Shown in pieces: positions 19,925 to 54,267 of a stretch of DNA of 64,000 nucleotides; position 1 is the stretch's first letter; the number at the start of each line of letters is the position of its first letter. The stretch is from a virus (lineage: Duplodnaviria; Caudoviricetes). The notes under the pieces were generated by a model that was not told the DNA's origin, did no database searches, and was given only the letters and a program-made list of their open reading frames with translations. A program made the translations under genes and the position numbers. The stretch spans positions 1-64,000 of the IMG/VR virus record IMGVR_UViG_3300021255_000040; one strand, given 5' to 3'.

Positions 19925-21448
19925 TTAGCCTACCAAGATTGCAGGAATGTAGCTCAGAGTCCTTGTGGGGTCAAGCACACAGACACCTGTGGTTACATAC
20001 TTGTGAATGATAGCACTATCCTCATCATAGCTCATGTTGCTATTGCCACGCTGACCTGTGAAAGGATTGCGGAAGCCCCACTGATAAGAAGTGAAGTCAC
20101 CAACCTGACCCTTCACACCAACCTTGAAGATGTTGGGCTGATCCATTGTACCAATGTCAAAGATGTCATACCTGTAGGACATGGCAGGGCCACCCATAGG
20201 ATGCTGAATCTTGTTGCGTACAGGGTCATCATAGAATGGGTCAACATCAATCTTCACATACACACCATTAGGAGCAATGAACTCAGTAACCTGAGGAGCA
20301 GTCAGCCTGTAAGCACCTCCATGAGGAGTCATCTTACTTGAAACAGGCTTCATAGCACCAAGCTCAGAAGCACTATACTCATAGGTGATAGGACTCCAGC
20401 CAGAGCCATCACTCAGAGCTGCACGACTGAACTGGATAGCACCCATCTCACCAGTCTTTACAATGAACTTACGCTCACCAAACTCCAGCTTAGTGCGTGA
20501 AATCTGATAGAGGTCATCCATGAAACGCTTCAAAGAGAAGTTGTTGTAGGGATCAGTATTAGATACTTCCATCTGCTCATACAGACCAGCACCCATACGA
20601 ATAACCTCACCACTCTTACCAATATTCAGGTACTCACCATTCTGATTGCGGTTAGAACGACCAAAAGCAAGCAGATTGTTCTTGTACTCATTCCACTGAT
20701 GCTCAAACTCCCACTGTACATTGTGCATCCACATGTTCTCTACTCGCTTGTTGCCATTGGCATCTACCAAAGGAATACCAAAGGCTACCTTCTTGTCAAG
20801 CATAGAACCAGGAACCTTGTGCTTGATACGGATAGAAGAGAACTCATTGCGCATGGCAACAGGACTTGCAAACCTGATGTCACCAACCTGACGAGACAAC
20901 TCTCTCTCAACAGGTGCATACTCAACACTGAATCTCTCACCAGCAAGCAGACGCTCAGCAGGAATACCTGAGACAATACCACCCATCAGCTCAACCTTGT
21001 ACACTGTGTTGGTTCCCTCATTGCGACCCTCACCAAGTACCCTGATAGGATATACTTCGTTCAAGTCACCAACAATTACCTCACCATCAGCAAACCAGTC
21101 CTCACCAAATACCAGATAGAATGGCTCACCATTCACACCAATATTAGTAACTGTCTGTGCTGTGACAATCTGACCATCACAATCCCTTGCCTCTACCAGA
21201 GGAATGTTACGCATAGCACTGCCAACAACAGGCCATGTGTACTCATCATCTGAATCAAATTCCTTTGTGGGGAACTGAGAGAGGAAAGTGTCGAGGGTCT
21301 TACCCCTGTACAATGCAAGAAGCTGCACCATCAGATTAGTGTACTGCTGTGGAGCTTCCTGGAATGCTGCACCAAGATGGTTTCTCTTAGTCAGGCCCTT
21401 CCAATGGTTAAAGGTCAACTTCTGAAATTTACCTAATTTTCCAGCCAT
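19925..21448 (-). CDS. Major capsid protein
   Basis: 507 aa; 'WKGLT..NHLG', 'F.EDWFADGE', 'MRNEFS.IR', 'GRSNR', 'YDDPVRNK..HP.GG.A.SYRYDI' are crAss MCP motifs. Confidence 0.93.
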   Translation of the reverse strand: MAGKLGKFQKLTFNHWKGLTKRNHLGAAFQEAPQQYTNLMVQLLALYRGKTLDTFLSQFPTKEFDSDDEYTWPVVGSAMRNIPLVEARDCDGQIVTAQTVTNIGVNGEPFYLVFGEDWFADGEVIVGDLNEVYPIRVLGEGRNEGTNTVYKVELMGGIVSGIPAERLLAGERFSVEYAPVERELSRQVGDIRFASPVAMRNEFSSIRIKHKVPGSMLDKKVAFGIPLVDANGNKRVENMWMHNVQWEFEHQWNEYKNNLLAFGRSNRNQNGEYLNIGKSGEVIRMGAGLYEQMEVSNTDPYNNFSLKRFMDDLYQISRTKLEFGERKFIVKTGEMGAIQFSRAALSDGSGWSPITYEYSASELGAMKPVSSKMTPHGGAYRLTAPQVTEFIAPNGVYVKIDVDPFYDDPVRNKIQHPMGGPAMSYRYDIFDIGTMDQPNIFKVGVKGQVGDFTSYQWGFRNPFTGQRGNSNMSYDEDSAIIHKYVTTGVCVLDPTRTLSYIPAILVG

Positions 21449-22851: not shown

Positions 22852-25128
22852 TTACTGCTGTTTCTTTCCTGGATAATTCTTATTCCAGTAGTCATCTGCT
22901 GCCATACCAGTAGCAGGAGCTTCGTGTTGTTTCAAATCTCCTTGGAACAAGATAATCTTTTCTTCTCGGTATAACATAAGCTGGGCAAGAGCCATGACTC
23001 TATCATAGTTACCAAAAGGGTTCCATAGAATTAACTCTTTCAATAACGCTCTATTCCTTATATTATATAGATTAGGCATGGTAGTTTCAATATCATTTCC
23101 ATCATTATCCTTAACAACAATAGGAACAGGTTTTAACAGCCAATCTCTGATAACCCTGAAAGCATAGTTAATAACAGGAACAGTTGCCCTGACACCTTTG
23201 GCTGTATTGCCAAATCCTCCTGATTTTACAATCTGCTTATCCTTCAGGTATTCTGGGGTATCTGCCAACATCCACAGGGAATGTCTGATACTGAAGAAAG
23301 TAAATATACCCTTCAGGTTCTGCTCATACATACATCTTGCATTATAATACTTGCAGAGTTTCCACACTATATCATAGAAGTCGTCAGCAAACATAGGCCT
23401 ACCTGTATATTCTGCAACCAATTGATCAGTCCATAGGTCTAACACATGTACTGATGCCAGTGACATGGTTTCAGACTGGTCTTGGTCATAAGGGTCAACA
23501 CCTGCTATATATCTGCCTTGGGGTACATTACCATCAGAACTTTTCTGAGGTTGCTGGAAAATCTCCAATGCTCCAGTAACTTTATTATCCTTGAGTGGAA
23601 AATCTCTTATAGGTGTGTTACTATTAGTAGGCACAAACTCTACTTTACCAGTATTTTTGTCAAAAGACAGCTCTCCTACATAGACATCATCATATTCATT
23701 GGGGTTATTATCCAATTGATTCAGCCTGTTATTCAACTCAGTCACAGGAAACATATTTCCCTGACTTCTGATAATAGCCTCTTGTGGTGTAATGGGATAC
23801 TGGGAAATACGTTTGGTAATGGTATTAACATCTGTAGAGCCGTATTTTACTTTATAGCGGTCATTCAGAAGCATAAGGAGTGCCTTAGTAACATCACTGT
23901 TACCATCAGCATCTACACAGGAATCATCATAATTCATGTAAGCAGGATAGAACATACAGCATTTCTTTCTACCTTGTCCTTCCTTATCAAATACATTGTC
24001 CAGTGCTTCCATGTTATAACCATCAGGAGAGTAAAACATCTCTTGGAAGGCAGTAAAGTCTGACATATCATCACCAGCAGTTCCATAGGCTATAATCTGT
24101 CCAAACACAGAAGAACCTTGCTCTACAGAAGGTCTAATCATGTTGTACATAGAAAGTAAATCCTTGAAGATACCTGCCTCCTCAATGAGATACAACACAC
24201 CACGAGAACCATTTAGCTTATCCTGATTAACACCTGATATAATACCTGATACTGAGTTCTGGCTACCATAGGCTACATCACTACCAGACTTCTTATAACC
24301 CATCTCCCAATAAAGCTCTTGAATACTGCTCTTAAGTCTTCTTGAAGCAAATTGAGTATTCTTGGCACAGAAGTCTATATCATCCACAAACACATCAAGT
24401 ATCTGGTTAGTACCAATCAGTTTGGTTCTATCAGCAGCAGTAACCATGCACTGCACACCTTCTTTATTATCAGCAGATTCTCCAATAATAAATCTCTTGG
24501 CAGCTTTCTCTGCACCCATACCAGTCTTACCTTTACCACGACTGGCAAGATAGGCTGAATGGTGTCCATGCACTCTACTCTGTCTCTCATAGTGATAGAC
24601 AAGAAACTGCCCATCCCAGAACTTTGGATGTCTGGTAGTACGCATCTCCAAGCCATCATCTCTCTTTACTACAAGGTGCATAGGACAATAGTTTAGCAAC
24701 CAGTAGTGGTCTCCAGTCACCCACATACCAGTTTCAGGGTTACAATATCCTTCCCAACCTCTTCTCCTTTCCTCTCTGATGTATTTACCAAACTCACTAT
24801 TAGGATTTGAGTTTGGCTTCAGGTTAGTGTATTTATGCTTAGGGTCATTCTGCCAAGTTAAAGCAGCTTCCCTGAAATAGTCTGAACATTCAAGAATAGG
24901 AGGATGAGTTACATCTATGATAGCTCTGCCAAACTCATCTTTAGGTAGTTCTGAGATATAAGGTCTCGCAGGACTGACCATCCACCTGATGAATGGCACA
25001 TTATTCAGATAGTCCCAGAACTGTTCGACTACTTCATTTGGGTATTTTTCAAGATGTAATTCTTCTAATGGTGTTTGACATTTATTCCACTTTACTTCCA
25101 TGTGTCTCCCTCCTTTACCTTTTTCCAA
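22852..25128 (-). CDS. terL: Terminase large subunit
   Basis: Walker A-like 'LASRGKGKT', Walker B 'LIEEAG', 'GTAG', nuclease 'AGVDPYD', 'GNYDRVMA'; likely start 25101. Confidence 0.93.
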   Translation of the reverse strand: MEKGKGGRHMEVKWNKCQTPLEELHLEKYPNEVVEQFWDYLNNVPFIRWMVSPARPYISELPKDEFGRAIIDVTHPPILECSDYFREAALTWQNDPKHKYTNLKPNSNPNSEFGKYIREERRRGWEGYCNPETGMWVTGDHYWLLNYCPMHLVVKRDDGLEMRTTRHPKFWDGQFLVYHYERQSRVHGHHSAYLASRGKGKTGMGAEKAAKRFIIGESADNKEGVQCMVTAADRTKLIGTNQILDVFVDDIDFCAKNTQFASRRLKSSIQELYWEMGYKKSGSDVAYGSQNSVSGIISGVNQDKLNGSRGVLYLIEEAGIFKDLLSMYNMIRPSVEQGSSVFGQIIAYGTAGDDMSDFTAFQEMFYSPDGYNMEALDNVFDKEGQGRKKCCMFYPAYMNYDDSCVDADGNSDVTKALLMLLNDRYKVKYGSTDVNTITKRISQYPITPQEAIIRSQGNMFPVTELNNRLNQLDNNPNEYDDVYVGELSFDKNTGKVEFVPTNSNTPIRDFPLKDNKVTGALEIFQQPQKSSDGNVPQGRYIAGVDPYDQDQSETMSLASVHVLDLWTDQLVAEYTGRPMFADDFYDIVWKLCKYYNARCMYEQNLKGIFTFFSIRHSLWMLADTPEYLKDKQIVKSGGFGNTAKGVRATVPVINYAFRVIRDWLLKPVPIVVKDNDGNDIETTMPNLYNIRNRALLKELILWNPFGNYDRVMALAQLMLYREEKIILFQGDLKQHEAPATGMAADDYWNKNYPGKKQQ

Positions 25129-27173: not shown

Positions 27174-27599
27174 TTAATTACCTAATATAAGTTTTTTCTT
27201 CTCAGGGATGATAATACTCTCATTAACCTCTTCACCTTCAAACACAAATTGAATGTCTCTGTCAGTCAAAAGCAAGCAATCACTGGTATTTCCCTTCTCA
27301 TCTGTTACAGGAACAGTGGGAATATTAATACTTAGAGTGGGGTTATTATCCATATCATTCTGTACAGAGTCCTTACTATATTTCTTCCGCACATAGGCGA
27401 TAGGATTAATCATCACCATATCACCAACCTTGATGTCCCTTACAGCAGAACCTACAGCCAATACCTTTTGATACAACTTAAGGTCTCCCTTTTTCTGGTC
27501 TTGCTGGATAATACCTCCAACAGTAACATCTTTCTCAAACTTATCACCTGTTGTAACAATAGAGGTGAATAGTGGCTTAATTGTCTTTATCTTTAACAT
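27174..27599 (-). CDS. GroES-like co-chaperonin
   Basis: 'IKPLF..IV', 'GGII', 'VLAVG..V..IKVGD.V' GroES-fold motifs. Confidence 0.65.
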   Translation of the reverse strand: MLKIKTIKPLFTSIVTTGDKFEKDVTVGGIIQQDQKKGDLKLYQKVLAVGSAVRDIKVGDMVMINPIAYVRKKYSKDSVQNDMDNNPTLSINIPTVPVTDEKGNTSDCLLLTDRDIQFVFEGEEVNESIIIPEKKKLILGN

Positions 27600-27888
27600 T
27601 GTTATCCTGTTTTTTATTTATATGTTCTAAATAATTCTTGTAATGATTGGCATGATGCCTCTTCATTCTATGATACCTGTCAAGAGTAACATGCAACTTA
27701 CCTATAGATGGAATATTAATGTTTGGCTTAAGCTTCTCAAATTCCTCATCTGTCAGGTCTTCCTTCATAGGCAAGGATGCTATGTACTGCTTGATGGCTC
27801 TCCAGTATGCTTTGTAAGTTTTGTCCACCAGTCTTTCAGAAAGACCAGTCTCAACAGCAACTCTAGATATAATCTCCTCATAGACCAT
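27577..27888 (-). CDS. Hypothetical protein (HU/IHF-like)
   Basis: 103 aa; 'II..VA.ETGLS...V', 'INIPSIGKL'. Confidence 0.5.
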   Translation of the reverse strand: MVYEEIISRVAVETGLSERLVDKTYKAYWRAIKQYIASLPMKEDLTDEEFEKLKPNINIPSIGKLHVTLDRYHRMKRHHANHYKNYLEHINKKQDNNVKDKDN

Positions 27889-27892
27889 TACC

Positions 27893-28339
27893 TTATACTT
27901 CTCCTTTAAACTGTATCAAGAGTCTGAATATTCCATTGTCATCCTGTCTGACATTGGGAATCAGCTGGGGATGAATAATGTCATCCTTCAAAACCCCCTT
28001 TCTTTTCAATGCACTCTTGATGACATAGAAGTGCTGGGCTGTAATACCACACTCCTCAATCACATCCTGCTTAACCTTATCACTCTTCATCAAAATATCA
28101 AGATGTGCAGGGTCTTTAGTGTCTTTAGATAACTCCCATCTCTGTTTTAGAAGACTGGCAATAACATCAGTTTCCTTATCTGTAAGGCTGATAAATGGTC
28201 TGAGAAAGATACACCACCACTTGAAAAAAGCAATGCTGGATGCACAATCAACATTGAACATGTTGTTGGGCTTAGGCATGGTAATAGTCTTCTTCTTACC
28301 TTCCTGCTCTGACTGCTTGGGTACTGTACTGTTCTCCAT
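27893..28339 (-). CDS. Hypothetical winged-helix-like protein
   Basis: 148 aa; 'LT.KE.DV', 'I...GI...F..I...L..KG'. Confidence 0.5.
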   Translation of the reverse strand: MENSTVPKQSEQEGKKKTITMPKPNNMFNVDCASSIAFFKWWCIFLRPFISLTDKETDVIASLLKQRWELSKDTKDPAHLDILMKSDKVKQDVIEECGITAQHFYVIKSALKRKGVLKDDIIHPQLIPNVRQDDNGIFRLLIQFKGEV

Positions 28340-28340
28340 A

Positions 28341-28721
28341 TTACTTCTCCTTATTCTCTTCTTCTTTCTGTTCTGGAATAGTCAGTGCTTCCTGAATCTC
28401 CTTAAGACACTCCTCAACAAATACACTGTCAAAACAAGGATAGTCTGAAACTCTGTAGTTATTAGCAATCTCCACTACCTTGAACAAATACTCCATTCTC
28501 TTGTTAGTGAAGTACTGCTCTGCCTCACCAAGCTGCTTTCTCAGTCCCTTGATATAGTTATCCTGATTATACAATTGCTGATTCATCTGGATAACCTGCT
28601 GAACCAATTGCTCCTTAGACCATTTCTGAAGCTCATCCTGAATAGAACCCTCTGTACCTTTACCCTCAGGGTTAGTAACTGGTTTCATCTTCACTTCCTT
28701 ACTTCCAATCTCTTTCTCCAT
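28341..28721 (-). CDS. Hypothetical coiled-coil protein
   Basis: 126 aa; 'KRM.YLFKVVE'. Confidence 0.55.
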   Translation of the reverse strand: MEKEIGSKEVKMKPVTNPEGKGTEGSIQDELQKWSKEQLVQQVIQMNQQLYNQDNYIKGLRKQLGEAEQYFTNKRMEYLFKVVEIANNYRVSDYPCFDSVFVEECLKEIQEALTIPEQKEEENKEK

Positions 28722-28726
28722 ACCTT

Positions 28727-29164
28727 TTAATATTTAAACAGTTTCAACAATAAAAATTTCAAATCATTAAGCTTATTCTCCTTGACTATGTGATGAAAGA
28801 AGAGAATAATAGCATCTGCCTTACTCAAACCTCCAGGGAATGAAGGATATATTGTCTTGATAACTTCCTTCCATTTGTCACTCTTATACACCTTGGTCTT
28901 CAGCTCTTCAATAGTCAGACCAAATATAAAAGTCTTCCTGGGATCTTCATTCTTTACGGCAAACTTATGTCCATATCTCTTCTCATACTTTTCTTCCCAT
29001 ATCTCTATAGGAGCCTCTGAGATGTCAGAACAGCCACAGTCACCACAGTATTCAGAGTCTAAAGTCTCATCATACTTGACCTTCAGTGAGTAACATCTGG
29101 AACAGTATTTTACTGGCTCAGAGTCATAGTCATTAAGTTCTCTTGTTTCTGGCATAGTGGACAT
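28727..29164 (-). CDS. Zn-ribbon protein
   Basis: 'EPV.YC.RC.SL', 'YC..CG...I'. Confidence 0.6.
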   Translation of the reverse strand: MSTMPETRELNDYDSEPVKYCSRCYSLKVKYDETLDSEYCGDCGCSDISEAPIEIWEEKYEKRYGHKFAVKNEDPRKTFIFGLTIEELKTKVYKSDKWKEVIKTIYPSFPGGLSKADAIILFFHHIVKENKLNDLKFLLLKLFKY

Positions 29165-29198
29165 CTATAAGTTACACCTTATTATATATAATAGGAAA

Positions 29199-29420
29199 TT
29201 ACTTCTTTCTACGTGTAACCCTGCCACCTGTGGACTTGATGTTAGCAGCACTCTTCATAGCATTGGCTCGCTTGGTCATATCATCAGCTTGCCTGTTTGC
29301 CTCCTTGATAGCCATGTTCATTCTTGACTTGTCACTCATAATCTCCTGATACCTCGCCATTGTGTGAGCATCATCCTGTGCTTGCCATTGCAAGTCCTGT
29401 TTCGACATCTTTGTTGCCAT
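29199..29420 (-). CDS. Small basic hypothetical protein
   Basis: 73 aa; TAnnTTTG element upstream at 29539-29546. Confidence 0.5.
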   Translation of the reverse strand: MATKMSKQDLQWQAQDDAHTMARYQEIMSDKSRMNMAIKEANRQADDMTKRANAMKSAANIKSTGGRVTRRKK

Positions 29421-29778
29421 AAGTCCTTAATATTTATTCTGTTATACTGAAAAACAATCTCAAAACCTTAAAGTAAAACTTGAACCATTAAACAGATACC
29501 ACTCTATTTCAGCAAGTTATACATCCTAAAACTTGTGGCAAAGATAAACAATATTGTTTAAACTTCCAAATAAAAACTCTAATTATTCCTTACTTTTAAT
29601 ATAAATTAAGGTTCTGATTCCCTCAACTCCACAAAAAATTACCTATCTTTGTACCCAGTTCATTCATCCTAAAAACAACTCGTTCTTTACAAATTATGTT
29701 CACTCACAACTCACCTCCATAACAGCCAACATGGAAAAGTCCTTTAAAATAAAGCACTTAGCAACCTTCCAAAGAGTA

Positions 29779-29806
29779 GGGGGTTCGAATCCCTCTCTCT
29801 CCGCCA
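29779..29806 (+). other. attP-like core: 3' end of a tRNA-Ser gene
   Basis: GGGGGTTCGAATCCCTCTCTCTCCGCCA = T-arm + acceptor strand + G discriminator + CCA with no tRNA 5' half; ~145 bp upstream of the integrase. Confidence 0.8.
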
Positions 29807-29950
29807 AATAGCACAAATGGGAAGGTTTAAAAGACTTTCCCATTTATTTTTGTACATAATCACATTACACATTATTTACACTCTAAAATTTCATTCTTTA
29901 CACTTTGGTGTTGTAAGCCCCTATTAACATCCTAAAAACAAAATTTAACA

Positions 29951-31102
29951 ATGAATAACAAAGTACCTCAAATAAATGTTGTGTTTGATAGAAGAAAAGT
30001 AGCCAGTCTCAGCAAGAAAGCTGCTGTAGAACTCAGAATAACCCACAATTATAAACAAAAGTGGATTAGCACAGGCATCATGCTATACTCTAATCAATGG
30101 AAAGATGGCAAGATTATCAACTGCTCAAACATATTGGAGATTAGTCAGACTCTGGAAACTCTTCTAACTGAAGTAAGGCAGGTTATCCTTGAGATGATTC
30201 AGAAGAATAACCTGAACATAATGACTATCTCTGATGAACTAGACAAAAAAAGACAGAGCAAAATATCATTCATTGATTTTTGCCATCAGAGAGTCTCTGT
30301 CAGGAAGTACAGGAAAAGTCAAGATACTAAAGAAAGATATGACAGGTTCATCAAGCACTTTGCTAAATGGGGTAAGATAAAAGAGTTTGAGGATATTAAT
30401 GATAAAAACATCATTGACTATGATAATTATCTGAAGGGATTCAAGCTAAAGTCTTGCAGTAAGTGGAATAACTACCACAGGTTCCTGAACAGTTTTATCA
30501 TAGATGCTGTTGCTGAAGGACATCTCAAGAGGAACCCTTATAAATGGATCAACGTGGATAGAAAGAAAAACAGCAAGGCAATAGAGAGGTGTCTTACTCC
30601 AGTAGAATTCCACAGACTTACTAGAACTAAGATGCCTACCCAGAGTATTGAAAGAGTTAAAGACTTGTTTATCTTTCAGACATACACCTGTCTCAGTTAC
30701 TCTGACCTCAAGGACTTTGATAGTAGAATGATTCAAGAGGTTAAAGGTATGAGTGTATATGTGGGCAGAAGAATCAAAACTACTATGACATTCACCATTC
30801 CCCTGCTGTCTCCAGCTCTTAACATTCTACATAAGTATGATGGCAGGTTGCCTATAATAAGTAATGTGAAATATAATGAGTATCTTAAGATAGTTGCTCA
30901 GACAGCAGGAATAGACAAGCCTATAAGTACCCATTGGGCAAGACATACAGGGGCTACTATATTACTAAATGAAGGAGTACCCATGCAGATTGTTTCAAAG
31001 ATATGTGGACATTCTTCCACCAAGATTACAGAGCAAGTGTATGCCAAACTCTTGGATGAAACAGTTGTAGAGGCTATTCAAGAAGTAGAAGATAAGATAT
31101 AA
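29951..31102 (+). CDS. int: Tyrosine integrase (Bacteroidales type: arm-binding + SAM-like + catalytic domains)
   Basis: 383 aa; N-terminal 'V.LRIT..Y....ISTG', 'F..YT.L.YSDL', 'H.ARHT.AT..LN.G', 'GHS...T...YAK'. Confidence 0.92.
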   Translation: MNNKVPQINVVFDRRKVASLSKKAAVELRITHNYKQKWISTGIMLYSNQWKDGKIINCSNILEISQTLETLLTEVRQVILEMIQKNNLNIMTISDELDKKRQSKISFIDFCHQRVSVRKYRKSQDTKERYDRFIKHFAKWGKIKEFEDINDKNIIDYDNYLKGFKLKSCSKWNNYHRFLNSFIIDAVAEGHLKRNPYKWINVDRKKNSKAIERCLTPVEFHRLTRTKMPTQSIERVKDLFIFQTYTCLSYSDLKDFDSRMIQEVKGMSVYVGRRIKTTMTFTIPLLSPALNILHKYDGRLPIISNVKYNEYLKIVAQTAGIDKPISTHWARHTGATILLNEGVPMQIVSKICGHSSTKITEQVYAKLLDETVVEAIQEVEDKI

Positions 31103-31171
31103 TAAATCCCTCTGACCTATCGCAGGCAAGAGGGACTGGCAATTGTAAATTTGCGTCAAAGAAAACAATTT

Positions 31172-31354
31172 TTATCTTATGGATTTTATCAAATACTCGA
31201 TCTTTAGGATTATCCAGATAGCCAAAGCTACTGGCCATAACATACAGGCTATATTGGCTGACTGGTGTTCTATCTCACCATCATCATTACTATATATAAA
31301 GCAATGTGCGGTTATAGCACCAAGGATATATACTATAGTAACAATCCACTCCAT
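31172..31354 (-). CDS. Small two-TM membrane protein
   Basis: 60 aa with two hydrophobic segments. Confidence 0.45.
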   Translation of the reverse strand: MEWIVTIVYILGAITAHCFIYSNDDGEIEHQSANIACMLWPVALAIWIILKIEYLIKSIR

Positions 31355-31357
31355 ACT

Positions 31358-31960
31358 CTACTTGATTATCTCGATATACTCAGAACTCTCATCTTCAACA
31401 TAAGGATTCTTCTCTTTAACATTAACTTTCACTACATAATGCTTTCGCTGAAACCATCTGAAAAGAAAGAACTTCTTAGGGGGATTAACAGTCTCCTTCT
31501 TACTGGAGACTACAATATGTTTCTCACTCTTAAAGTATGGTTGTATTGCAATCATAGAAGGATACTTAAGTCCTAGCCTGACATTGTACCACTTGTCTCC
31601 TATCAGAGTATCTATAGCCAGCGTAGGTTCCTTAAACAAGGTATCTCTCATGGTTATAGTATCTCTCTTGGTGAATCCTGATTTCACTGCCTGAAGAGCC
31701 TTCAGGTTCTTGTCTTTAATCTTCAGTTCCTTCCTTGTATTGTCAAGCTCCTGAAGGACAGAATCCTTGAAGTAGCCCAACTGGTCAACAGTTAGTTGCA
31801 AAGCTATGTTCTTCTCACCTTCTGCTGCTAATTGAGCATCATAGGCTTTCATATTAGCAGTAGCTACTTCCCACTTATCATTAGCATACTTCACCTGTTG
31901 CCACGTAGCACCTATGATAACTACCAAAACTACAATCGCTAAAATCAGATATTTTTTCAT
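31358..31960 (-). CDS. Membrane-anchored coiled-coil protein (spanin-like)
   Basis: Likely start 31960 (MKKYLILAIVVLVVIIG), N-terminal TM then coiled coil; own TAnnTTTG at 31980-31987. Confidence 0.55.
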   Translation of the reverse strand: MKKYLILAIVVLVVIIGATWQQVKYANDKWEVATANMKAYDAQLAAEGEKNIALQLTVDQLGYFKDSVLQELDNTRKELKIKDKNLKALQAVKSGFTKRDTITMRDTLFKEPTLAIDTLIGDKWYNVRLGLKYPSMIAIQPYFKSEKHIVVSSKKETVNPPKKFFLFRWFQRKHYVVKVNVKEKNPYVEDESSEYIEIIK

Positions 31961-32070
31961 ACTCTTCTTATTTTGGTTGCAAAGATAAGGAAGAATATTC
32001 TTGGAGCAAAGCATCTAAGGATTCTACTAAGACAAAAAGAAAGAGAGGACTGTAGAATCCTCTCTATCTA

Positions 32071-32142
32071 GTTGCGGATGTAGGATTTGAACCTCACCTC
32101 TTGGTTATGAGCCAAACATGCGACCATCACACTGCATCCACG
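32071..32142 (-). tRNA. tRNA-Met(CAT), initiator-like
   Basis: Minus strand CGTGGATG..TTTGG-CT-CAT-AA-CCAAG..GGTTCAAATCC..CATCCGCAA; C1:A72 mismatch; terminator hairpin follows. Confidence 0.8.
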
Positions 32143-32159
32143 ATGTAATTTCAGGTGTT

Positions 32160-32526
32160 TCACAACAGCTTACTCTTTATATTGTTCTTGCTATAAAATT
32201 GTCTTATCTAAAAAGAAGAAAAGCCATAATAATTCCCTAACGGACTTTTCTAGACTCATCATTCTTGCATTTCCACTGGGCGGTCAGTATTCACTTAACT
32301 CGTAAGCTTTTTAACTCCCAAAAGTCCTTTTACCCTCAGCCTTTTTTCCATTGTAGTTTGGCAGGACACCAATATTATAACAAGAACTTTTTTGACCTAT
32401 CGGGGTTTGAGTAATCCTTTATCTCAGAGCTATGTGATATTTCTATCTGCTCTTACAACCCGACTTCTAATCCATATATACCTTCTGGCCTTTTGGATGA
32501 GCATGAGACTACAACTCTCAAGGGTC
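32160..32526 (-). ncRNA. Candidate large structured non-coding RNA
   Basis: No credible ORF; TAnnTTTG at 32531-32538; nested complementary segments (TTGTAGT/ACTACAA, GGACTTTT/AAAAGTCC, TCGGGTT/AACCCCGA, GATA-GAAA-TATC). Confidence 0.5.
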
Positions 32527-32651: not shown

Positions 32652-32981
32652 TTATATATAAGGTGTAAAGTCAAAGTCTTCTGTAATCTCTAACCAGTCC
32701 TCAAAGGTAACTCCTCCATATAGCTCAAAGTTAGCTACACACATCAACATGTAGTCTATACATTTATTGAAATTATCAAGGGGCTTGACATTCTTGAAGT
32801 ATACCATATTAGTCAAGAAGACCATATCTCCCAGAGTGGAACCAGTAACATTATAGTACACTTTCCTCTGGGCAGCTTTCTTGACCTTGTTGCCATTCCA
32901 TCTGCCTTCAGTAATACTCATAGCCAACTTCTCAGTGAAGTGTTTGCCATGTTTCTCCAAGTATGCTTCTAGTCCTTTCAT
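32652..32981 (-). CDS. Hypothetical protein, distant paralog of 34324..34740
   Basis: 'Y....G.HF..KL' and 'D....NM' shared. Confidence 0.6.
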   Translation of the reverse strand: MKGLEAYLEKHGKHFTEKLAMSITEGRWNGNKVKKAAQRKVYYNVTGSTLGDMVFLTNMVYFKNVKPLDNFNKCIDYMLMCVANFELYGGVTFEDWLEITEDFDFTPYI

Positions 32982-33930: not shown

Positions 33931-34327
33931 AGGCTTTACAATTACAAACCATTTCACCAAATACATGGTACATCCTCTCTACCAGATGACCTATGGTGTA
34001 TGCAGGTGGTTCTCCTTCATCTTCTACATCATAAGCTGCTAGCATAGCTTGCTTAACATGCTCTGCCTCATGGACTATAGAGTTGATGTAATCTCTCTTT
34101 GACTCATGGGGATTAAACATTACTACACTGATATGCCAGTCTATATTATTATAGGTAGCAGCTTTTGCCTGACCTGATTTCAACATATCATAGGCTTCCT
34201 TGATAATTTCAGTAGAGGCTCCTGCATATATCAGCTCCTTGACTATACGGGCAAAAAGGTTAAAGTCCACATCATAGTAGACAATAACCTTCCAGTAACT
34301 TTCTATGTCAAACACCTGCTTAATCAT
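33923..34327 (-). CDS. Putative zincin-like metallopeptidase (module gene 6)
   Basis: 134 aa; 'SIVHEAEHV' HExxH plus downstream 'GEPPAY'. Confidence 0.6.
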   Translation of the reverse strand: MIKQVFDIESYWKVIVYYDVDFNLFARIVKELIYAGASTEIIKEAYDMLKSGQAKAATYNNIDWHISVVMFNPHESKRDYINSIVHEAEHVKQAMLAAYDVEDEGEPPAYTIGHLVERMYHVFGEMVCNCKAYD

Positions 34328-34740
34328 AGCATCTCATCCCAGTCTACAGGATTGTTCATAAACATAGTGTCTGCATAGAATCGGTTAAACACAAAACCTT
34401 CCTCTGCATCAGCATCATCAAGCAAATCCTGAACATACATCACCAGATGCTTCTCATCAGGGACTGACTTACCAAGGAAATCAGCTTGGCACATGTTTGC
34501 CACATAAGTAGCATCATACAGCTTATTTCTCTCAATCTTGATGTTATAGTTGGCAATCATAGCATCTACCTGTTCCTTGGTATAAGGCTTAATGTGCTCC
34601 TTTTTGCCACCATTATCCTTGTACATCTGGCTGACTGCCCAGTCACAAAGCTTCTTGTTGAAATGACAGCCATAGTTATTGATGTACTGCTTCATTCCCT
34701 CAGGTATCTCATCATAACTGCCTGTTCTTCTTTGATACAT
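34324..34740 (-). CDS. Hypothetical helical protein (module gene 5)
   Basis: 138 aa; 'YG.HFNKKLC.WAVS.M', 'YD..YVANM..AD', 'F.RFYAD', 'W.EM'. Confidence 0.7.
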   Translation of the reverse strand: MYQRRTGSYDEIPEGMKQYINNYGCHFNKKLCDWAVSQMYKDNGGKKEHIKPYTKEQVDAMIANYNIKIERNKLYDATYVANMCQADFLGKSVPDEKHLVMYVQDLLDDADAEEGFVFNRFYADTMFMNNPVDWDEML

Positions 34741-42514: not shown

Positions 42515-42985
42515 ATGTGGAATATTAGAAAAGAAGTAAGTAAAGGGGATTACATATATGCAGTAGTACCAGAGCATCCCAAAGCAACAAAGAACCACTA
42601 TGTTCTTATGCATAGAGTAGTGATGGAAAACTTCCTTGGTAGAATGCTTAAAGATAATGAAGTTGTACACCATATAGACCACAATAAAAAGAACAACGAC
42701 ATAAGTAATCTTGAATTGATGGATAAAGCCCTTCATGTAGAAATGCATAGCAAAGAGCAAGGAAGACAAATGGTAAAGCTGATATGTCCTTGGTGCAAAA
42801 AAGAATTTATTGCGGAAAAAAGATGCACACATCTACAAAAGCCCTCAAAGTATCATTGTACATGTTGCTGTAGAAGCTGTAGAGGCAAATTATATAGATA
42901 TATACAGATGAATAGAGTTACTTCAGCTATTCGAGATGCTATAAATAATAATGTAGTTGCTTCATATAAAAGATACTTAAGCTAG
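42515..42985 (+). CDS. HNH homing endonuclease with Zn-binding C-terminus
   Basis: 'HRVVME..LGR.L...EVVHHID.NK.NN...NL', CxxC motifs; TACTTTTG at 42486-42493. Confidence 0.85.
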   Translation: MWNIRKEVSKGDYIYAVVPEHPKATKNHYVLMHRVVMENFLGRMLKDNEVVHHIDHNKKNNDISNLELMDKALHVEMHSKEQGRQMVKLICPWCKKEFIAEKRCTHLQKPSKYHCTCCCRSCRGKLYRYIQMNRVTSAIRDAINNNVVASYKRYLS

Positions 42986-42991
42986 AAGCAA

Positions 42992-43063
42992 GCCCCCATA
43001 GTTTAATGGAGAAAACAAGATCCTTCTAAGATTTAGTTGGTGGTTCGATTCCACCTGGGGGTA
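42992..43063 (+). tRNA. tRNA-Arg(TCT)
   Basis: GCCCCCA..AGATC-CT-TCT-AA-GATTT..GGTTCGATTCC..TGGGGGTA. Confidence 0.85.
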
Positions 43064-43235
43064 CAGACATATTCATGTTATTTAAAGGGTTTTAGAAAGT
43101 AGAGGAGAAATAAGGAGACTGATACTAGCAAATAGCACAATCCTGTCTCCTCTATCTTTCTTTTTTGCAACCTTTAAATACACTCACAACAAATACAATT
43201 CACTTAAATATTTAACCCTTTAAACAATTAGCATT

Positions 43236-43820
43236 ATGAGTGCAAAAGAAAATAAAAGGTATTCACCAAATGAAATTACTCTTATTAATGGGCACAATGC
43301 AATTTTTGATGAACCATTGTTAAGAGAATCTATGAATTATTTAAATATGGATTTTCCACAAAAACGTGTTTTTATTGCTATTTCCTCTACAGGATACCCT
43401 GAAATTCGTTTTGCAAATAGTTATATCAAGTTACATAGAATTATAGGACAATATGTATTTAAAGATAAAGAAGGTGTATATCAATATCATCATATAGATG
43501 GAAATAAATTAAATTCTTCAGCAAAAAACCTACAACAAATGACATTATCAGAGCATCAAAAGCTGCATGGAACAGGTAGAATAATATCAGAAAAACATAG
43601 ATTAGCTATTTCAAGAGCTAGAAAAGGAAAAATTCCTTGGAATGTCAGAGCAATATTAATGCTAGACAAAAATAATAATATCATTTCTGAATTTGCTTCT
43701 ACTAAAGTAGCTGCTGAAACAATAGGTGTGTGTAAAACTGCAATTACAAACAACTTAAATAATCGAAGTAAATATTGTAATAATTATAAATTTGTGTATA
43801 AAGATGAATATATCAGCTAA
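43236..43820 (+). CDS. HNH homing endonuclease with NUMOD-like C-terminus
   Basis: 'LHR.I', 'HHIDGNKLN....NL', 'KG..PWN', 'EF.S...AA'. Confidence 0.8.
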   Translation: MSAKENKRYSPNEITLINGHNAIFDEPLLRESMNYLNMDFPQKRVFIAISSTGYPEIRFANSYIKLHRIIGQYVFKDKEGVYQYHHIDGNKLNSSAKNLQQMTLSEHQKLHGTGRIISEKHRLAISRARKGKIPWNVRAILMLDKNNNIISEFASTKVAAETIGVCKTAITNNLNNRSKYCNNYKFVYKDEYIS

Positions 43821-54020: not shown

Positions 54021-54092
54021 GCTCCCATAGTCGAGTGGATAAGACGTAGACCTCCTAAGTCTAAAGCACTGGTTCAATTCCAGTTGGGAGTA
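54021..54092 (+). tRNA. tRNA-Arg(CCT)
   Basis: GCTCCCA..TAGAC-CT-CCT-AA-GTCTA..GGTTCAATTCC..TGGGAGTA; TACCTTTG at 54000-54007. Confidence 0.85.
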
Positions 54093-54267
54093 CTATCAGA
54101 ACAAAGCGTTGTTTTGTATTTTGATTTGTTTTAGTAGTAATATTGTTTTAGGTTAATAGAAAAGTTTTGGTTGCTTCCTATTGTCTGAGAAGATAGTAGG
54201 AAGCTTTTTCATGTGATAATTCTCCCAGTGCAAACTGGTAATAATAATCTTTTAAATAATAAGTAAA

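Follow-up and report, generated by a model that had tools for sequence, protein, structure and literature searches.

The 64,000-nt stretch of DNA analyzed here (the window) covers positions 1 to 64,000 of IMG/VR virus record IMGVR_UViG_3300021255_000040, which is 123,180 bp long and rated 100% complete. On its + strand it carries a gene for a tyrosine integrase (int, 29951-31102), and just upstream of it lies a fragment identical to the 3'-terminal part of a tRNA-Ser gene. We consider it quite likely that the two belong to the integration module of a temperate Steigviridae-like crAss phage of ruminant-gut Prevotella, made up of a heterobivalent IntCTnDOT-type integrase (Int) and a phage attachment site (attP) of about 400 bp in which a core of 28-30 bp stands between a P and a P' arm, and this crAss-like branch very probably forms prophages.

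The integrase is a full-length protein of 383 residues, as an earlier note on this DNA had claimed, and it was assigned from matches in both Pfam and PHROG (phrog_1, 'integrase'). It contains an arm-binding domain (Arm-DNA-bind_5, PF17293; 27.3 bits, cut-off 22.6), a SAM-like domain (Phage_int_SAM_5, PF13102; 38.3 bits, cut-off 22.3), and a catalytic domain (Phage_integrase, PF00589; E=7e-13), and its C-terminal HxxR...H...Y block aligns with the structures of XerD, XerA, and IntI4 among matches in the PDB. The gene is indeed oriented against its neighbors, as the sole + strand gene between the - strand genes of 1-29420 and those of 31172-~37800.

The position of the first catalytic Arg had been read as 'LSYSDL', raising a doubt about activity. 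The reading is correct, with S249 at the canonical Arg-I position, but the doubt is not borne out by an alignment of 13 integrases. Here K276, H328, R331, H354, and Y364 are invariant, a Ser stands at Box I in every member of the clade as well as in the BI-TP1 integrase, and an alternative Arg, R274, is found two residues ahead of K276. BS-TP2 is the only aligned integrase with an Arg at Box I, and it shows the reciprocal pattern, with a Ser at its R274 position. In the IntCTnDOT subgroup, a downstream Arg takes over from the Box I Arg (Smyshlyaev et al. 2021, PMC8138268, citing Kim et al. 2010). Judged by the alignment, the absent Box I Arg is a trait of the IntCTnDOT family and not a defect, with R274 predicted to compensate for S249, and with this alternative Arg recognized the catalytic set is complete. 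All 14 listed variants within int (contigs of three other runs, 90-99% identity) fall at third codon positions, counting the codon phase from 29951, which indicates that int is under purifying selection.

The putative attP core, GGGGGTTCGAATCCCTCTCTCTCCGCCA, occupies 28 nt of the + strand (29779-29806), 145 bp upstream of int, and matches the last 28 nt of tRNA-Ser(UGA) exactly, from the T arm through the 3' acceptor strand and G73 to CCA. ARAGORN detects no whole tRNA at 29779-29806, so the core is a 3' fragment, and a repeat search returned no inverted copy of it nearby and no second copy flanking int in the window. None of the listed strain variants falls within the core. Behind the core is an intrinsic-terminator-like hairpin with a T-rich tail (29815-29853, + strand), in which 14 pairs form between 29815 and 29845 and which scores as terminator-like; both the tRNA piece and the hairpin are therefore present as first described. 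Equivalent hairpins follow the tRNA piece in loci L012, L045, L007, and L010. A TAnnTTTG box detected by motif scan (29845-29852, + strand) overlaps the terminator tail. The left-hand (P) arm contains a Bacteroidota-type -7 box, TATCTTTG (29644-29651, + strand), which is directed towards the core and int and is also present in L007, L009, L013, and L045, and a motif match on the - strand (29539-29546) marks the -7 box of the leftward operon.

T(T/G)TACA repeats are found on both attP arms at positions conserved in the clade (29683-29702 in P, 29849-29902 in P'). On the + strand, they provide the candidate arm-type sites TTCTTTACA (29683-29691) and ATTATGTTCA (29693-29702) of the P arm, which fall in columns conserved across eight clade attP regions, and TTTGTACAT (29849-29857), CACATTACA (29861-29869), CATTATTTACA (29870-29880), and CATTCTTTACA (29892-29902) of the P' arm, where the TnTACA columns are invariant in the clade alignment. 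A different repeat, CATCCTAAAA, had been put forward as the possible arm sites. This repeat is real, with exactly three copies on the + strand within 410 bp (0.3 expected; 0 of 100 shuffles reach three). The first (29522-29531) is beside the leftward promoter box; the second (29665-29678) begins 13 nt past the + strand -7 box and has the same motif at the same place in L013; and the third (29928-29941) is in the int leader, 10 nt ahead of the ATG, where L045 has CTCTAAAAACAA. The latter two lengthen to the 14-mer CATCCTAAAAACAA. The T(T/G)TACA repeats are nevertheless the likelier candidates for arm-type sites because their positions on both sides of the core are conserved across the clade, and the CATCCTAAAA(ACAA) copies, two of them near -7 boxes and one in the leader of int, may act as regulatory or leader elements. 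Similar words said to occur at ~4292 and ~27153 could not be recovered, as none was seen there within one mismatch.

The record is a circularly closed assembly of the free (attP) form of the phage. Its two ends overlap by 105 bp (window 1-105 matches 123076-123180 of the whole phage genome, G000), and this overlap, to which the record's 'direct terminal repeat' label refers, falls within an ORF (open reading frame) of ~800 aa, from which it follows that the record is closed into a circle. The phage genes on both sides of int, which had suggested an excised attP to the earlier note, together with this self-closure identify the free form. The crAss-type major capsid protein (MCP; 19925-21448, - strand, phrog_11589) shares 65% identity over the full length with its counterpart in Bacteroides phage DAC15 and 63% with that in crAss001, and the crAss-type large terminase (TerL; 22852-25128, - strand, phrog_6681) is 55% identical to that of cr116_1; these reference phages are classified as Crassvirales; Steigviridae; Asinivirinae. 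By MCP, TerL, and one tail-region protein, on which the placement rests, the phage is crAss-like and Steigviridae-like. Its species is present in 20 public runs from 11 studies, many of them labeled bovine gut, and every time it was recovered in the free configuration. At the DNA level, the module has no match among GenBank phages.

A relative found integrated and free

A relative of the phage fully demonstrates, for a crAss-like member of this clade, both insertion at the 3' end of a tRNA-Ser gene and the existence of an excised form. The integrase of this relative, P0077, is 71% identical to that of the phage and is encoded on a JGI contig of 148,409 bp (L012). Upstream of int, this contig carries bacterial genes for ribose-phosphate pyrophosphokinase, a thioredoxin-like protein, endonuclease III, ECF sigma, YkuD, and MazG, and then tRNA-Ser(CGA); downstream of int are phage genes. 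P0077 is also encoded on two short contigs (L013 and L014) where small phage ORFs and the phage P arm lie upstream, which is the attP configuration. L012 is identical to L013 and L014 rightwards from GGTTTGAATCCC... and unrelated to them leftwards. The other end is visible in an IMG/VR provirus (G004) of 117,540 bp, 100% complete according to CheckV and with a crAss MCP at 65% identity, where a phage P arm identical to that of L013 is followed by the same core and then a bacterial lipoprotein gene. A 33-bp block, consisting of the T loop, the acceptor strand, and 9 nt past the tRNA, is common to the attP, attL, and attR of the relative, and the core repeats of G004 and L012 bracket the whole 117-kb phage. 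The same integrated junction was assembled from a second sample (L048), and a look-up for an empty attB beside the host gene of L012 gave integrated contigs only. Junctions or integrated relatives, proposed in the earlier note as a check on lysogeny, are thus available for a relative with a 71% identical integrase bracketed by the 33-bp core, and none was found for the phage itself.

Two further features of these genomes were observed. In the P' arm of L013 (1620-1650; the same in L012, 9755-9790), as well as in L003 and L004, there is a second, partial T-arm/acceptor copy tens of bases past the core, which may reflect an earlier core or offer Int an additional core-type site. In G004, the homolog of the ORF that holds the 105-bp end overlap of the phage is located at 112763-114064, ~3.5 kb from int, so the gene order around int differs between the two genomes.

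Candidate host targets for the phage were also found. The 28-mer is the end of the tRNA-Ser(UGA) gene in 19 of 301 sampled Prevotella-family genomes, an exact match of the kind that the earlier note had proposed to look for. At each inspected locus the tRNA-Ser(UGA) end is followed by its own terminator, and these loci are candidate empty attB sites. Identity between the core and some hosts runs on to 29808-29809, and the longest stretch common to the phage and a host locus is 31 nt (L022). In the source run, Logan contigs stop exactly at 29779/29808. The contigs of each of the four runs (X1, X2, X6, and X7) end at the core, where the depth of the core bin is ~10x phage depth, which means that these samples are rich in matching tRNA-Ser genes.

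When the integrase was used as a query against one genome per species, two loci were found. One (L010), in a Prevotella sp. metagenome-assembled genome (MAG) from water-deer omasum, has a tRNA-Ser(UGA) gene whose last 28 nt are identical to the phage core and, 220 bp downstream of it, a 58% identical integrase on a low-GC island (38-45% GC for the integrase-bearing DNA, 54-58% for the host genes). In a Bacteroidaceae MAG (L011:9689-10660), arm-like TTACAC repeats come after a tRNA-Ser(CGA), together with an integrase that has lost an internal part and retains only residues 166-380; this locus is the decayed remnant of an element of the same family.

The module across the clade

A search with the integrase protein returned 1,976 matches, and the best 120 of the 1,976 have 62-98% identity, several of them on contigs of 100-120 kb. 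The order of the module is kept in every context examined (including L033, L034, L035, L045, L007, and L009), with small - strand ORFs, attP, int on the + strand, and a DUF6549-like gene of ~200 aa on the - strand. In an alignment of eight clade members, a tRNA 3'-end piece is found at the same place upstream of int, and across these attP regions the cores vary but the repeats of the arms do not. The phage has a Ser-UGA core, L045 and L013 have Ser-CGA cores, and L003, L004, and L005 have other Ser-like ends. Two more distant members have a whole tRNA gene at this position, each with its own promoter box and terminator: a tRNA-Lys(CUU) in L007 (9780-9853) and a tRNA-Val(CAC) in L009 (9672-9807), the latter preceded by a separate CCA-ending tRNA 3' fragment. 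Set beside the fragments of the other members, these show that att sites in the clade can be either a whole gene or a 3' fragment. As a tentative proposal, the rumen Steigviridae-like crAss clade might be temperate with a switch that lacks a recognizable CI, LexA, or Xis component, and might re-target a conserved scaffold of Int and arms by swapping either the core or a whole tRNA (Ser-UGA, Ser-CGA, other Ser, Lys, and Val).

The whole tRNA genes in L007 and L009, together with the fact that the phage encodes other tRNAs, could also be taken to mean that the integrase serves a different job, such as the resolution of replicon dimers or the inversion of DNA, and that the tRNA piece is what is left of a tRNA gene once carried by the phage, and not an att site. 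We regard this as very improbable. An arm-binding domain with arm repeats on both sides of a core is typical of integrative recombinases; no inverted copy of the core is found nearby; the fragment ends exactly at the block held in common with the host tRNA-Ser; and the homologous block in the relative is the crossover region of a real insertion.

An even slighter prospect is that int and att make up a small separate mobile element that has inserted into the phage genome. The lone + strand int in a - strand block would fit such an element, as would its closest named relatives, which are integrases of non-crAss Bacteroides prophages (38% identity), and the presence of a homolog amid insertion sequence (IS) elements. 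The latter, on contig L046 (ENA ERZ27234817 k141_686844), is a 74% identical integrase surrounded by ISL3 and IS21 transposase genes and an Abi_2 gene; no tRNA was detected near it, and the context is probably bacterial or degraded. A separate element is disfavored by the window, where no second copy of the core flanks int, by the position of the module, which is syntenic in all clade members examined, and by G004 and L012, where the core repeats enclose a whole 117-kb phage.

Proposed integration of the phage and its limits

If the module acts as an integration module, the core of the circularized genome would pair with the identical 3' end of the host tRNA-Ser(UGA) gene. The N-terminal domain of Int would sit on the T(T/G)TACA arm repeats and its core-binding (CB) and catalytic domains on the core, so that the protein bridges both, and Int would exchange strands within the common 28-30 bp. 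At attL, the tRNA gene would be rebuilt with the phage terminator hairpin behind it, and at attR a duplicated core would mark the far end of a ~123-kb prophage. Integration would also part int from the P-arm promoter at 29644, which, speculatively, may couple the expression of int to the configuration of the genome. What the sequences show is the anatomy of the module, its exact match to host tRNA genes, an integrase that is intact and under selective constraint, and, for a related crAss-like phage, the full set of attP, attL, and attR; that this particular phage integrates is an inference, as are the maintenance and reversal of its lysogeny.

A number of results weigh against this view. Among contigs of the four runs over 27500-32500, none joins the phage arms to host DNA; these k-mer contigs break at the 30-nt core and cannot tell attB from attL/attR, and a loose end past 29808, with a terminator-like hairpin and T-run, fits either. 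Scans of JGI metagenome contigs and IMG/VR, covering records other than the phage's own and near-identical ones, gave 0 matches to the attL of the phage (tRNA body, core, and P' arm) and 0 to the pattern of core plus P' arm. Neither close to int nor across the genome could a repressor, an anti-repressor, or an excisionase be recognized. The 29 small ORFs gave no match to HTH (helix-turn-helix), repressor, or Xis families in Pfam with cut-offs applied, and neither HTH_3 nor Peptidase_S24 has a match at cut-offs in four phage genomes, including the whole phage genome and G004. The sole HTH_17-like candidate, a protein of 109 aa, is a core crAss gene. Finally, the element behind tRNA-Ser(UGA) in the water-deer MAG carries a gene for Fic and a winged HTH (wHTH), and no crAss MCP was found in that MAG; by its sequence, this locus shows that the integrase family uses a tRNA-Ser(UGA) target and is not evidence of a crAss prophage.

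The 109-aa protein (G000 111567-111896) had been considered as an excisionase, since the provirus has a gene for a 63% identical protein at 1 kb from its int. It was rejected as not specific to lysogeny because 40-45% identical homologs are found in crAss-like genomes that have no integrase, some of them annotated as small terminase.

The caveat of the earlier note that no CI-like repressor is recognizable in the window therefore extends, for HTH_3 and Peptidase_S24, to the whole genome. This is a weak test, however, and says little, because the integrated relative G004 is likewise without a recognizable repressor. The absence of a recognized repressor or excisionase, together with the lack of an integrated copy among the records of this species and the free configuration of every recovery, is also what would be seen if the module were a relic, with a temperate ancestor having left int and attP, now unused or rarely used, in a phage that is lytic or in a carrier state like cultured crAss phages. 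We think this unlikely. The core matches the tRNA genes of living hosts at 28 of 28 positions; int varies at third positions only among strains from several studies; and the example of G004 makes the absence of a repressor uninformative. Lysogeny at a host tRNA-Ser, as first suggested for this phage, is thus supported by the tRNA match, the integrated relative, and the complete catalytic set, within the limits set by the lack of a junction of this phage and of a recognized repressor or excisionase.

Elsewhere in the window, the phage encodes a tRNA-Met(CAT) (32073-32141, - strand), a tRNA-Arg(TCT) (42992-43064, + strand), and a tRNA-Arg(CCT) (54021-54093, + strand), and HNH homing-endonuclease ORFs (42515-42985 and 43236-43820) lie on either side of the first tRNA-Arg. 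Two paralogous small proteins encoded on the - strand (34324-34740 and 32652-32981) match DUF7841; the match is strong for one of them (E=5e-27) and weak for the other.

Known systems and the biology of crAss-like phages

Int has the same three-domain architecture as the integrases of the IntCTnDOT subgroup (IntDOT of CTnDOT, IntN1 of NBU1, and IntN2 of NBU2), and the hosts in both cases are Bacteroidota. NBU2 reportedly targets the 3' end of a tRNA-Ser gene. NBU-type elements are located at tRNA genes, including tRNA-Ser (PMC13597742). As in IntDOT, the Box I Arg of Int is replaced and a predicted compensating Arg is found just ahead of the beta-hairpin Lys (PMC8138268); the likeness to IntDOT and IntN2 is drawn from domain architecture and the published description. 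The CTnDOT and NBU elements differ from the phage in being conjugative or mobilizable, whereas Int would move a crAss-like virus of ~123 kb, and their accessory genes of the Xis/Exc type are not recognized in the phage. The best named matches to Int, at 38% over the full length, are integrases of the LoVEphage/BI-TP1 type, and that of BI-TP1 has the same pattern of S at Box I with R-x-K. BI-TP1 is a LoVEphage-type prophage recovered by antibiotic induction, according to the source line of its record. These phages are ~71 kb and not crAss-like, and beside int they have an S24 repressor and a Cro/C1 HTH gene, neither of which is recognized in the phage.

In classical tRNA-targeting systems (P4, HP1, and P22-type), attP has the structure P-core-P' and holds the 3' part of a tRNA gene, which is rebuilt upon insertion. 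The phage has the same tRNA-identical core, candidate arm repeats on both sides, and an int gene adjoining attP, and its relative has direct repeats of the core at both ends of the prophage. There is no difference in principle, although the phage also brings along a terminator to stand behind the rebuilt tRNA and, in its clade, the core is swapped among Ser isoacceptors, Lys, and Val with the arm motif unchanged. The mechanism is thus an ordinary, textbook one, and it is the carrier, as a phage lineage, that is unexpected.

The phage shares with the Steigviridae crAss001, DAC15, and cr116_1 an MCP at 63-65% and a TerL at 55% identity, a genome of ~100-120 kb, and Bacteroidales hosts, but these phages are described without lysogeny genes while the clade of the phage has a conserved int and attP. 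Cultured crAss phages are described as lacking lysogeny genes (bioRxiv 354837, PMC11054128), and the Steigviridae, Intestiviridae, Crevaviridae, and Suoliviridae are described as lytic or non-lysogenic (PMC11054128). A 2026 catalog of the mouse gut rarely detected integrase modules in Steigviridae and reported an annotation-level enrichment of integrases in mouse Intestiviridae and a Zeta group (PMC13503771). Epsilon crAss-like phages have a repressor and anti-repressors, and incomplete prophages of them occur in Parabacteroides (PMC11054128); PMC8776839 credits Fujimoto et al. 2020 with a 'temperate crAss-like phage'. Integrases are not mentioned by Yutin et al. 2021, and surveys of the rumen virome list crAss-like viral operational taxonomic units (vOTUs) without comment on lysogeny. 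The earlier hints of temperate crAss-like phages (PMC11054128, PMC13503771, and PMC8776839) did not resolve attP, attL, and attR of a Steigviridae-like phage or make a link to Prevotella tRNA-Ser.

It has long been asked how crAss-like phages remain highly abundant with no obvious lysogeny. A conserved int, a defined attP, and the resolved attL and attR of a relative make chromosomal lysogeny an option within the order, and they name candidate hosts, the Prevotella with a matching tRNA-Ser(UGA), so that a prophage-aware assignment of hosts to rumen crAss phages becomes possible. The pair of Int and attP is also a candidate tool for site-specific integration in Prevotella, which are hard to engineer. 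If the proposed re-targeting within the clade is true, it would amount to a naturally occurring set of site-specific integrases for use in Prevotella, and the question of crAss persistence would be reopened.

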